From Escherichia coli (GTDB lineage: Bacteria; Pseudomonadota; Gammaproteobacteria; Enterobacterales; Enterobacteriaceae): a stretch of 64,000 bases of DNA. Location: the NCBI RefSeq assembly GCF_044324875.1, contig NZ_CP172185.1. One strand, given 5' to 3'. The notes under the pieces were generated by a model. The model saw only the letters and a program-made list of their open reading frames with translations, was not told the DNA's origin and searched no databases. The position numbers and the translations under genes are program-made. Of the stretch, positions 13,708-35,320 are shown one piece after another (within the stretch, counting starts at the first letter, position 1; each line of letters starts with the position of its first letter).

Positions 13708-15387
<1,680 letters not shown>

Positions 15388-15640
15388 TTATCGGGCTTTT
15401 CTTTAAGGGTAGTCATTCGCTCCGCCTGGTGGGCGACAAAGCGTGCGGTGGATCACGTTTATTAACCTGTCAAAAAATATAACGCACTAATATCCATGGA
15501 ATTTATAAAAATACAGATTTCGTGTTGTTTTTCATTTTCAGAACATTCAATCCTGCTCTCGCCGCAATCATGATATGCCATTCCTGATCTGGATAATAGG
15601 CATAGGCTATCTTATTGATAGTTTATATTCATGTAATTGA

Positions 15641-15654
15641 TTGATTCCTATCAA
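15641..15654. promoter_or_regulatory. FNR-consensus site upstream of yhjA
   Basis: ttgattcctatcaa is an exact TTGAT-N4-ATCAA match about 108 bp upstream of the yhjA start; yhjA is reported to be FNR/OxyR-regulated. Confidence 0.6.
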
Positions 15655-15761
15655 AAAGCGTATCTCCCTGTTTTTTATGATGGCTTTGTCTCGCAGAGAC
15701 GTTTGCAGCATTCTGGAAAATTTTCTGGGTCACAATAACTCACCACCGTGAGGGAAGAATA

Positions 15762-17159
15762 ATGAAAATGGTCTCACGTATTACCGCGATCGGCCTGGCT
15801 GGCGTCGCGATTTGCTATTTAGGGTTATCTGGTTATGTGTGGTACCACGATAATAAACGCAGTAAACAGGCCGATGTTCAGGCATCTGCTGTCAGTGAAA
15901 ATAATCAGGTTTTAGGCTTTCTCCGCGAAAAAGGATGCGACTATTGCCACACGCCTTCGGCAGAATTACCCGCCTATTATTATATTCCTGGCGCGAAACA
16001 GTTGATGGATTACGACATTAAGCTTGGATATAAATCTTTTAACCTCGAGGCCGTGCGTGCGGCTCTGCTGGCTGATAAACCCGTTTCGCAAAGCGATCTG
16101 AATAAGATTGAATGGGTGATGCAGTATGAAACCATGCCACCAACGCGTTATACCGCGCTACACTGGGCGGGTAAGGTGAGTGATGAAGAGCGGGCGGAAA
16201 TACTCGCCTGGATTGCAAAACAGCGCGCGGAATATTACGCCAGCAATGACATTGCTCCGGAGCATCGCAATGAACCGGTGCAGCCCATCCCGCAAAAACT
16301 GCCTACCGATGCGCAAAAAGTGGCGTTGGGCTTTGCGCTGTATCACGATCCCCGTTTATCGGCGGATAGCACCATTTCATGCGCTCATTGCCATGCGTTG
16401 AATGCGGGGGGCGTCGATGGCAGAAAAACATCGATTGGTGTTGGTGGCGCAGTGGGGCCGATTAACGCGCCGACGGTATTTAACTCAGTATTTAACGTTG
16501 AGCAGTTCTGGGATGGTCGTGCGGCAACATTGCAGGATCAGGCTGGTGGACCGCCGTTGAATCCGATTGAAATGGCGTCGAAATCCTGGGACGAAATTAT
16601 TGCTAAGCTGGAAAAAGATCCGCAGCTTAAAGCGCAGTTCCTTGAAGTCTATCCGCAAGGTTTCAGTGGCGAAAATATTACTGATGCCATTGCTGAATTT
16701 GAGAAAACATTAATTACGCCGGATTCCCCATTTGATAAATGGTTGCGTGGAGATGAGAATGCGCTGACGGCACAACAGAAAAAAGGCTATCAATTATTCA
16801 AAGATAATAAATGTGCAACTTGTCATGGTGGTATTATTCTCGGCGGACGTTCCTTCGAACCGTTGGGGCTGAAAAAAGACTTTAACTTTGGTGAAATTAC
16901 GGCGGCGGATATTGGTCGTATGAATGTTACTAAAGAAGAGCGCGATAAATTGCGTCAGAAAGTACCCGGTTTACGTAACGTTGCACTAACGGCACCGTAC
17001 TTCCATCGCGGTGATGTGCCGACGCTGGACGGGGCGGTGAAACTGATGTTGCGCTATCAGGTAGGCAAAGAGCTGCCGCAGGAGGATGTGGATGATATCG
17101 TAGCTTTCCTGCACAGTCTGAACGGGGTTTACACGCCGTATATGCAGGATAAACAATAA
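15762..17159 (+). CDS. yhjA: Cytochrome c peroxidase YhjA (Ccp), di/tri-heme
   Basis: 465-aa ORF with CXXCH heme motifs (CDYCH, CAHCH, CATCH) and N-terminal membrane anchor. Confidence 0.93.
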   Translation: MKMVSRITAIGLAGVAICYLGLSGYVWYHDNKRSKQADVQASAVSENNQVLGFLREKGCDYCHTPSAELPAYYYIPGAKQLMDYDIKLGYKSFNLEAVRAALLADKPVSQSDLNKIEWVMQYETMPPTRYTALHWAGKVSDEERAEILAWIAKQRAEYYASNDIAPEHRNEPVQPIPQKLPTDAQKVALGFALYHDPRLSADSTISCAHCHALNAGGVDGRKTSIGVGGAVGPINAPTVFNSVFNVEQFWDGRAATLQDQAGGPPLNPIEMASKSWDEIIAKLEKDPQLKAQFLEVYPQGFSGENITDAIAEFEKTLITPDSPFDKWLRGDENALTAQQKKGYQLFKDNKCATCHGGIILGGRSFEPLGLKKDFNFGEITAADIGRMNVTKEERDKLRQKVPGLRNVALTAPYFHRGDVPTLDGAVKLMLRYQVGKELPQEDVDDIVAFLHSLNGVYTPYMQDKQ

Positions 17160-26047: not shown

Positions 26048-26575
26048 CTAAAAATAAGATGTGATACCCAGGGTGACGATGTCGCTCATACGTCTTAGTT
26101 TCAGCTTGTACATAATGTTGAATTTCTGAATCTTTAATGTTTGTTGCGAAATATTGAGCGTCGACGTGATATTGCTTTCATTTTTATTTTTCAGAATCAG
26201 TTGCATAATTTTGAACTGATTATGTGAAAAACATAATTGTGAATTCTTATGGGGCAAGTGTTTACCATAAGTAATCTCAAGAAGATTTTTGATACTTTCT
26301 TTGCGGCTAACAAAATAAATAGGCGCTTTAGCTTTTAGTTTACTGATGTGATAAGGTGCCAAAACAATAATTCTCTCGGCATCTAATTTCTCCAGAAATT
26401 TAATCGCTTCTTCATCAAGGATATGATTGTGATAGGTATCAATGATAACCTTGAAGGGTTTATTGCCTACTTTTTTGATCTCTGACAGGGAATTGATTTT
26501 TATCATTTCGTGATTATCTTTCAACTGCCAAAAGCCCTGTAAAAGAAAAGAATCTTTCGTCATGAGAAAAATCAT
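26048..26575 (-). CDS. gadE: LuxR-family acid-resistance master regulator GadE
   Basis: ORF 26048..26653 trimmed to ATG 26575 (MIFLMTKDSFLLQGFWQLKD...), 175 aa. Confidence 0.93.
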   Translation of the reverse strand: MIFLMTKDSFLLQGFWQLKDNHEMIKINSLSEIKKVGNKPFKVIIDTYHNHILDEEAIKFLEKLDAERIIVLAPYHISKLKAKAPIYFVSRKESIKNLLEITYGKHLPHKNSQLCFSHNQFKIMQLILKNKNESNITSTLNISQQTLKIQKFNIMYKLKLRRMSDIVTLGITSYF

Positions 26576-27373: not shown

Positions 27374-27946
27374 TTATTGCTGCTTAACGAACAAACTGGC
27401 GAAGCTGAACAGGCTGGCGGCGCTAAATATCAGTTCAATACCCACCAGTGTGGAAACCAAAGTTACAGACACCATCGGCGTTGCACCAAGGAATATCCAT
27501 GCAATGACGATATCCAGCACACCAATAACGAGCTGTAGCCAGCTGCCTTTCATTGAACGCTGACGATACCAACTCATCAGGCGAATAACCCCTGCAACAC
27601 AGAACAAACCGGCAATAAATGCCGCAATGGCAAAAATGCCCAGCTCCGGTGCGCGGATGAAGAAATAGCCGATCAATAAATAGGCGACTGCGACGAGGAA
27701 ACCGGATAATACCGGCCAGAAATTATGACTGCGGTTGCTGAATAATCCAACAATAAGCGCAACGCCCGAGCAGATTAATAATGCACCCACTACCGTGCTT
27801 AAAATATCGCCAGAGACGAACGGGAAACTGATACACAGCAACCCGACGATAAACAGTAGCACGGCAATAAACTGGATTGCTCTGCGATGCTTTTTCAGCA
27901 TCTCCAGATCAAACTTCAAAATTGTTGCCTTATCTATATATAACAT
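27374..27946 (-). CDS. hdeD: Acid-resistance inner membrane protein HdeD
   Basis: 190-aa ORF, multi-TM protein; divergent from hdeA. Confidence 0.93.
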   Translation of the reverse strand: MLYIDKATILKFDLEMLKKHRRAIQFIAVLLFIVGLLCISFPFVSGDILSTVVGALLICSGVALIVGLFSNRSHNFWPVLSGFLVAVAYLLIGYFFIRAPELGIFAIAAFIAGLFCVAGVIRLMSWYRQRSMKGSWLQLVIGVLDIVIAWIFLGATPMVSVTLVSTLVGIELIFSAASLFSFASLFVKQQ

Positions 27947-28200
27947 AGAACCACCCTATAAAATTAAGAAGAAAATCCCCTGCTATCAATCTATGCCAAA
28001 AACGCGTCTAAGAATGCAGTCGATTTAATAAAAATTTCCTAATTACAGTATCTGATGCATCTGTAACTCATTGTATTGAAATAAAAATATCTGATTTTGA
28101 TATTTTCCATCAACATGACATATACAGAAAACCAGGTTATAACCTCAGTGTCGAAATTGATTCGTGACGGCTCTTTCACTTTATAGTTGAGGATATTACG

Positions 28201-34032: not shown

Positions 34033-34947
34033 TTATTGCGGCCAAAGCTGCTGGTGTAAAGACTCAACGACATCAGCAATACGCGGACCCATTCCCAGAA
34101 TCAGGTTTTGATCAACGGTGATAATGCGCTGGTTTTTCCATGCGGCAGTGTGGGTAATTCCGGCAATAGAACGTAGCCGATTAATATCGCCATCGACCAT
34201 TTGTGAGGTTACGACAATCACTTCTGGATTGGCCGCAATCAGTGATTCTGCACTGTAGCTTTTGTACTGCTGGTGGGTTGCGACGTTTTCTGCTCCGGCA
34301 AGCGAAAGAATGGCGTCCGCGACGCTGCCTTTACCGGCAACCTGTGGCGCACTTCTGCCTGCGGAGAGAATAAACATGGCTTTAACCGGGGCTTTTTTGG
34401 CCGCCACGTTTTGCTGTACTCGCTCCAGGCGTTGGCTGATTTGTGTCACCAGCGCGTCCCCTTGTTCAGGAACCTGTAACGTTTTTGCCAGTTGGCGAAT
34501 GTTGGCGTACATCTGCTCAAGGGTGGCAGGCACACGCGGCAGGGTAACGACGTTGACTTTCTGCGCCCGCAGCTGGTCGAGCACAATTTGTGGCCCGGCA
34601 TCCTGCCAGGTAATTACGCTATCCGGGCGAAGTGACAAAATGCCTTCGCTGCTGAGTTGTTTCCAGTAGCCAATATGCGGCAGTTTGGCGGTTTCTGGTG
34701 GGTAAGATGTCGTTTCATCGACACCAACCACGCGTTCGCCAGCGCCCATCGCGTAGATTAGCTCCGTCAGCGATCCTCCTGCGACCACGATACGTTCGGC
34801 AGCCGTTACGCTAAAAGCCCAGCTAAGAGCCAGTACTGCCGTAAACAATTTTTTTCGTTTTACCGCGGTCTTCGCGGCAGAGGCCACGGCTGAAATACAT
34901 AACGTCAGTGGGGAAAAAAGAAACGGCCTGGTGATGATCCTTGGCAT
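34033..34947 (-). CDS. chuT: Periplasmic hemin-binding protein ChuT (start uncertain; ORF extends to 35025)
   Basis: ORF 34033..35025; an internal ATG at 34947 (MPRIITRP...) gives 304 aa; a Fur-box-like sequence lies inside the longer N-terminal extension, favouring the shorter start; class III periplasmic binding protein. Confidence 0.8.
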   Translation of the reverse strand: MPRIITRPFLFSPLTLCISAVASAAKTAVKRKKLFTAVLALSWAFSVTAAERIVVAGGSLTELIYAMGAGERVVGVDETTSYPPETAKLPHIGYWKQLSSEGILSLRPDSVITWQDAGPQIVLDQLRAQKVNVVTLPRVPATLEQMYANIRQLAKTLQVPEQGDALVTQISQRLERVQQNVAAKKAPVKAMFILSAGRSAPQVAGKGSVADAILSLAGAENVATHQQYKSYSAESLIAANPEVIVVTSQMVDGDINRLRSIAGITHTAAWKNQRIITVDQNLILGMGPRIADVVESLHQQLWPQ

Positions 34948-34970: not shown

Positions 34971-34989
34971 GAGAATGATCATGATTATC
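34971..34989. promoter_or_regulatory. Fur box at the chuT promoter
   Basis: gagaatgatcatgattatc matches 16 of 19 positions of the Fur consensus GATAATGATAATCATTATC. Confidence 0.6.
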
Positions 34990-35320
34990 ATTTGAGTTAT
35001 ATATGAAATACAACCGTCGATTCAATACGCACGGCGTTACAAGCGTATTTATTTTTGATTTTTATCAAGATGCTTCGTCAGCTAACGTTCTTGTTACCGA
35101 CTAAATTTCAGCGCGGGAAAAAGCTGAGAACCCAGAGATATCGAGGCTTGCAGAGCAAAGCGAAGAGGAAATTATCACTGTTAACGACAAAGTTTAGTGA
35201 TGAGGTCATGGGGGAATAACCATAAAAATAAAGTGGTTTTCAGGGCGCGGGATAGGTTTCATAACCCCCTGTTTATTGTGTTAATGGCGGTTAAAAAAAG
35301 CTTGATCATAAAAAATTGAT

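Follow-up and report, generated by a model that had tools for sequence, protein, structure and literature searches.

Genetic organization of the treF-ccp region

The window, that is, the whole 64-kb stretch of DNA analysed, was an E. coli chromosomal segment with yhjB, treF, ccp, gadA, and gadX. The ccp (yhjA) gene (15762..17159, + strand) corresponded to an open reading frame of 465 aa with the Pfam domains Haem_bd, CCP_MauG, and Cytochrom_C, and its name was taken from E. coli genomes with an identical intergenic region. These domains and the ccp annotation confirmed the first-pass annotation, which had recognized the gene as the cytochrome c peroxidase gene yhjA. The product is a tri-haem membrane-anchored cytochrome c/quinol peroxidase. 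An intergenic region of 404 bp separated ccp from the divergent trehalase gene treF (549 aa, ATG at 15357). Of 5426 complete E. coli genomes, 5422 carried this region, with gadA and gadX then following after ccp.

A palindromic FNR site, TTGATTCCTATCAA, was identified at 15641..15654 (read here on the + strand) on the basis of its consensus, weight-matrix score, conservation, and entry in Table S6 of Myers et al. (2013). All 10 of the 10 specified positions fitted TTGAT-N4-ATCAA, with TCCT as the spacer, so the exact half-sites noticed in the first-pass annotation were indeed present. The distance of about 108 bp to the yhjA start codon given there also held: the last base of the motif was 108 bp from the A of the ccp ATG (15762), and the motif centre was 114.5 bp from the ATG.

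Two exact TTGAT-N4-ATCAA matches were observed in the 64 kb of the window. Dinucleotide shuffles gave an expectation of 0.15 matches, and two matches were reached in 1 of 100 shuffles. A position weight matrix (PWM) was derived from 63 ChIP-seq-positive FNR sites (Myers et al., 2013, Table S6), which themselves scored from 11.5 to 20.6 bits with a median of 14.95 bits. The yhjA site scored 14.5 bits and was thus of about median quality (rank 36 of 63 relative to the training sites), and it was the second-best match in the window. In Markov-1 random sequence, about 0.56 sites scoring at least as high would be expected per 64 kb. Taken alone, the FNR motif is suggestive and moderately unusual, not decisive; its significance comes from its placement in the 404-bp intergenic region and from its conservation.

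An OxyR-type site (15596..15632, + strand) was found directly upstream of the FNR site. It comprised ATAG (15596-99), CTAT (15607-10), ATAG (15618-21), and a degenerate TCAT (15629-32), with three of the four tetrads exact and 16 of the 20 specified positions fitting ATAGnTnnnAnCTAT-N7-ATAGnTnnnAnCTAT by manual count. The site was 37 bp long, abutted the FNR site, and would extend from about -92 to -56 relative to the putative transcription start described below. Two matches to ATAG-N7-CTAT-N7-ATAG were present in the window, against 0.00 expected. The other match (27934-27959, minus strand) lay over the hdeD start in the hdeD/hdeAB divergent region, and may be a site of the OxyR type or a chance match in AT-rich DNA. 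In addition, a block CATTTTCAGAACATTC(A/G)AT at about 15533-15552, approximately 45 bp upstream of the OxyR site, was common to Escherichia and Citrobacter. This block could be part of the treF promoter or an element for a further regulator.

Promoter geometry

A putative -10 hexamer of the ccp promoter, TATGAT, was located at 15676..15681 (+ strand) and was conserved across orthologues. Its position would place the transcription start at 15688..15689 (+ strand). The -35 position (15653-15658) read AAAAAG, unlike TTGACA. The ccp promoter was not called in a generic sigma-70 scan, but this silence was not counted against it, because an activator-dependent promoter lacking a -35 element is expected to escape such a scan. 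The gap between the FNR site and the -10 hexamer was 21 nt in E. coli and 22 nt in many other genera. In nearly all orthologues, a [T/C]AnnAT hexamer was present 21-23 nt 3' of the FNR site, which would set FNR at -40.5 to -42.5.

For the E. coli promoter, the conserved -10 hexamer suggests that the centre of the FNR site (15647.5) lies at -40.5 or -41.5 from the start. The first-pass annotation presupposed a start site compatible with class I or class II activation, and the conserved -10 hexamer at 21-23 nt, which puts FNR at about -40.5/-41.5, points to class II. The ccp promoter therefore probably has a class II FNR layout without a -35 element. No yhjA promoter or start-site positions were found in the literature searched.

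Further, no match to the NarL heptamer (TACYYMT) was found in the treF-ccp intergenic region. The predicted fold of the ccp 5' UTR was no more stable than those of shuffled sequences (z = -0.73), and no RNA element is claimed there since the fold was not exceptional. An inverted repeat, CTCAC-N4-GTGAG, was present at 15739-15752, immediately 5' of the start codon of ccp, with its 3' arm overlapping the Shine-Dalgarno sequence (GAGG). Among Escherichia, Citrobacter, and Pluralibacter, the loop varied but the stem did not, and the repeat was missing in Providencia and Yersinia; compensatory changes in the stem were not found in the aligned orthologues. The repeat might form a small hairpin acting in translation or serve as a palindromic site for a protein.

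Conservation of the operator

The comparative set consisted of 40 loci encoding YhjA relatives (one genome per species), and alignments A1 and A3 supplied the sequences for the orthologue statistics. In alignment A1, six genera (Escherichia, Citrobacter, Pluralibacter, Trabulsiella, Entomohabitans, and Buttiauxella) were represented by 18 upstream regions. Its invariant columns were the ATAG/CTAT/ATAG tetrads of the OxyR site, TTGA (15641-44) and CAA (15652-54) of the FNR site, the Shine-Dalgarno/start-codon region, and four scattered single columns (T25, A103, G177, and T229). The TATGAT hexamer at 15676-81 was nearly invariant (A166, T167, A169, and T170). The half-sites were conserved beyond their surroundings: TTGA and CAA were fixed while the flanks and the 4-bp spacer were free to vary, the latter reading TCCT, TCTT, ACTT, TAAC, ACCC, GGTG, or AGCC.

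The order of OxyR site, FNR site, and -10 hexamer was also kept in Providencia, Hafnia, Enterobacillus, Yersinia, and an Enterobacteriaceae MAG. In 31 fetched loci, ATAG-N7-CTAT-N7-ATAG-N19-TTGA-N6-TCAA had a single occurrence per locus, 5' of ccp. The distance from the first OxyR tetrad to the FNR site was 45 bp in every orthologue with both sites except Providencia burhodogranariea, in which it was 56 bp (+11, one helical turn). In P. heimbachae and the second Entomohabitans paralogue, the OxyR and FNR sites were missing together. The gene upstream of the ccp module differed by genus, namely treF in Escherichia and Citrobacter, an acyltransferase gene in Providencia, a TonB-dependent receptor gene in Yersinia, an MFS transporter gene in Hafnia, and a GHL10 hydrolase gene in Trabulsiella. 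The OxyR-FNR module therefore belongs to ccp, not to treF.

Within E. coli, the 30-mer at 15628-15657, which includes the FNR site, was found exactly in 5392 of 5426 complete genomes. When the 30-mer was moved 5 bp downstream, exact matches fell to only 3964 of 5426, a difference due to SNPs at 15660/15661, just outside the FNR site. Compared with K-12, the intergenic region of the window strain carried a 1-bp indel and a few SNPs, none of them in the FNR site; the two differences in the OxyR region (15593 and 15603) were both outside the tetrads. In E. coli O169:H41 strain 2014EL-1345-2, ccp was annotated as a pseudogene (internal stop), with the FNR site and promoter intact.

Published evidence for FNR and OxyR control

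Control of yhjA by FNR and OxyR was described by Partridge, Poole & Green (2007, Microbiology 153:1499), as summarised in PMC10301912, and according to the published statement both factors are required for yhjA expression. Both regulators are curated as activators of the gene in PMC4207228 ("FNR yhjA Activator Anaerobiosis" and "OxyR yhjA Activator"). The same 14-mer is listed as its reverse complement, TTGATAGGAATCAA, in Table S6 of Myers et al. (2013), with its centre at K-12 position 3667319, the label "yhjA/treF", and a PatSer score of 14.16. As the 14-mer, the intergenic region, and the gene are identical, the K-12 site (Partridge et al., 2007; Myers et al., 2013) and the site in the window are the same element in different strains. 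The regulation cited in the first-pass annotation is thus on record, as far as the summary of the 2007 paper, the curated entries, and the listed 14-mer convey it. The yhjA FNR site is already known, in the literature since 2007, and the FNR/OxyR interpretation is supported.

Direct binding data, which the first-pass annotation had proposed as a check, were divided. In vivo FNR binding at yhjA and treF was positive by ChIP-qPCR (Lemmens et al., 2009), while the yhjA site had no ChIP-seq peak in anaerobic glucose minimal medium (marked "-" in Table S6; Myers et al., 2013). No FNR peak coordinate fell within 3667100-3667499 in the wild-type and hns/stpA-deletion peak tables of the latter study. 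There, yhjA was absent from the FNR-dependent operon table and occurred only in Tables S6 and S12. The Table S12 ratio for yhjA was 0.50 (Myers et al., 2013), which, by comparison with marker genes in those tables, probably means about 2-fold higher expression anaerobically. The supplements of Federowicz (2014; FNR ChIP-exo) that were searched contained no mention of yhjA, b3518, or treF. The adjacent OxyR site, the probable class II (not class I) geometry, and the negative genome-wide FNR ChIP-seq result had not been mentioned in the first-pass annotation.

The yhjA site was one of 124 "silent" predicted FNR sites in Myers et al. (2013), only five of which were given there as having prior evidence of FNR regulation. 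It was not on that list of five, yet its regulation by FNR had been published in 2007. By our own count from Table S6, a peak was recorded at only about 12 of the roughly 21 K-12 sites that match TTGAT-N4-ATCAA exactly. The yhjA site lies inside a 5.4-kb H-NS ChIP-chip region (K-12 3661953-3667384), and both IHF and H-NS ChIP-chip enrichment were reported over it (Myers et al., 2013, Table S6). In the window, an exact match to the IHF core consensus, AATCAATCAATTA (WATCAANNNNTTR), was found at 15634..15646 (- strand), overlapping the left FNR half-site, which fits the reported IHF enrichment. It was the only such match in the treF-ccp intergenic region, with six in the whole window on both strands. 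By eye, the IHF core at the left half-site was also present in Citrobacter and Pluralibacter, but not in Trabulsiella or Providencia. The local GC content around the FNR site dropped to 34%. Since no H2O2 was added, OxyR was inactive in the ChIP-seq cultures, and the missing FNR peak is compatible with an AND gate of FNR and OxyR.

Assignment of the site to FNR and ccp

Taking these lines of evidence together, TTGATTCCTATCAA is very probably the FNR operator of the ccp (yhjA) promoter. The site could instead serve mainly the divergent treF, or both genes, since it is located in the intergenic region common to the two. treF is a high-confidence predicted FNR target that was positive by ChIP-qPCR (Lemmens et al., 2009), in an assay that cannot separate treF from ccp, and it is listed in Table S11 of Myers et al. 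(2013; ratio 0.498) among genes that responded to O2 only when hns and stpA were deleted. However, the centre of the FNR site is 290 bp from the treF ATG, whereas its spacing to a conserved -10 hexamer facing ccp fits class II. Moreover, in genera where the neighbour is not treF, the OxyR-FNR-(-10) module is still at the same distance from ccp, and a main role in treF expression is thus unlikely. A more general doubt is whether the site is occupied at all: it might be a good consensus match that is kept unoccupied by H-NS and IHF and has little regulatory role. The absent ChIP-seq peak, the nucleoid-protein enrichment, the IHF core over the left half-site, the low local GC content, and the modest fraction of exact K-12 consensus sites with a peak all fit that explanation. 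It accounts poorly for half-sites conserved around a variable spacer over several Enterobacterales families, and for the rigidly maintained distances to the OxyR site and the -10 hexamer. It also runs against the published FNR dependence and the ChIP-qPCR binding, and the ChIP-seq cultures were without H2O2 and active OxyR. We therefore consider it very improbable that the site has little function.

The 5-4-5 or 5-6-5 inverted-repeat layout is common among sites of the CRP/FNR family, and the palindrome might accordingly be bound by another member, CRP or YeiL, instead of FNR. Both half-sites are of the FNR type (TTGAT), not the CRP-type GTGA, and the PWM score is close to the median of ChIP-validated FNR sites. 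TGTGA-N6-TCACA was not found in the treF-ccp intergenic region. In addition, the literature assigns yhjA regulation to FNR, the dependence being indicated by the title of Partridge et al. (2007). Binding by CRP or YeiL in place of FNR has hardly any likelihood on these grounds.

Proposed mechanism

With FNR as the activator of ccp, the promoter would operate as follows. In the absence of O2, the [4Fe-4S] FNR dimer would bind TTGATTCCTATCAA, about 40.5-41.5 bp upstream of the start, in place of the missing -35 element. It would then recruit and activate sigma-70 RNA polymerase at the TATGAT -10 hexamer through contacts presumed to be those of class II activation. Oxidised OxyR would occupy the four-element site directly upstream (about -92 to -56) in a fixed helical register with FNR, a phase requirement suggested by the spacing. 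With both activators needed, the promoter would act as an AND gate, the model with the best support, so that the peroxidase is made only without O2 and with H2O2, and the cell would then be able to respire on H2O2.

The OxyR and FNR sites may further form one rigid Enterobacterales operator, in which oxidised OxyR clears or remodels an H-NS/IHF complex and thereby permits FNR binding. We put this forward tentatively, as a possibility with the odds somewhat against it. If H-NS and IHF held the site in the absence of oxidised OxyR, the lack of an FNR ChIP-seq signal in plain anaerobic culture would be explained. Were it true, the AND gate would operate at the level of FNR occupancy, which is more than the published requirement for both factors implies.

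That synthesis of the peroxide-respiring enzyme of E. coli is confined to oxic/anoxic interfaces is explained by the FNR/OxyR control published in 2007. What the present analysis adds is comparative only, namely an FNR-OxyR-(-10) module with fixed spacing in several Enterobacterales families. Being "silent" yet of high quality, the yhjA site also offers a convenient test case for FNR binding that depends on a co-activator or is gated by nucleoid proteins.

Comparison with known systems

The nirB and narG promoters are class II FNR promoters at which NarL/NarP binds upstream of FNR at -41.5. The ccp promoter resembles them in having an FNR site over the -35 position, no recognisable -35 hexamer, a putative -10 hexamer 21-22 nt after the FNR site, and a second, signal-specific activator upstream. 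In contrast to nirB and narG, the predicted co-activator at ccp is OxyR, which binds a 37-bp site as a LysR-type tetramer, and not a response regulator. Further, the 21-nt gap to the -10 hexamer in E. coli ccp suggests -40.5 rather than the canonical -41.5.

Another E. coli operon, hcp-hcr, is OxyR-activated (PMC4207228), and its FNR site, TTGATTTAGCGCAA at 913134, had a ChIP-seq peak (Myers et al., 2013, Table S6). Like ccp, it is thus listed both as OxyR-activated and as FNR-bound. The FNR site of hcp is further upstream, in a class I-type position, unlike the ccp site. FNR-dependent cytochrome c peroxidase genes occur in other bacteria as well. In Neisseria gonorrhoeae, for example, ccp encodes a periplasm-facing haem c peroxidase and, like E. 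coli ccp, is expressed anaerobically in dependence on FNR. The gonococcal Ccp is a di-haem lipoprotein, whereas the E. coli enzyme is a tri-haem membrane-anchored quinol peroxidase, and we know of no conserved OxyR-FNR composite element at N. gonorrhoeae ccp.

Other FNR-type sites in the window

The best FNR PWM match in the window was not the yhjA site but a perfect TTGATAAAAATCAA at 35055-35068 in the chuT/chuA intergenic region (17.8 bits). Its centre was 114.5 bp upstream of the chuT (shuT) ATG at 34947. FNR control of chuT would be physiologically sensible, because the gene heads an operon with chuW/hutW, which encodes an anaerobic haem-degrading radical SAM enzyme. No good -10 hexamer was found at class II distance from this site; a candidate TTGAAT-N16-TATATA promoter would put FNR near -70.5, and a Fur-box-like sequence was present at about 34971-34989. 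The exact 30-mer containing the site was found in 2227 of 2236 genomes carrying the locus. Conservation specific to the site was ruled out by pairwise alignment, in which the whole chuT-proximal stretch of about 160 bp was conserved. In the literature searched, no direct link between FNR and chuT was found, and only repression of chuS by FnrS was described.

In addition, the sequence TTGATTTTTATCAT at 26493-26506 (14.3 bits) corresponded to a ChIP-seq-positive FNR site, ATGATAAAAATCAA at K-12 position 3656458, upstream of gadE (Myers et al., 2013, Table S6). The window therefore contains a bound FNR site about equal in score to the unbound yhjA site (14.5 bits) in the same experiment.
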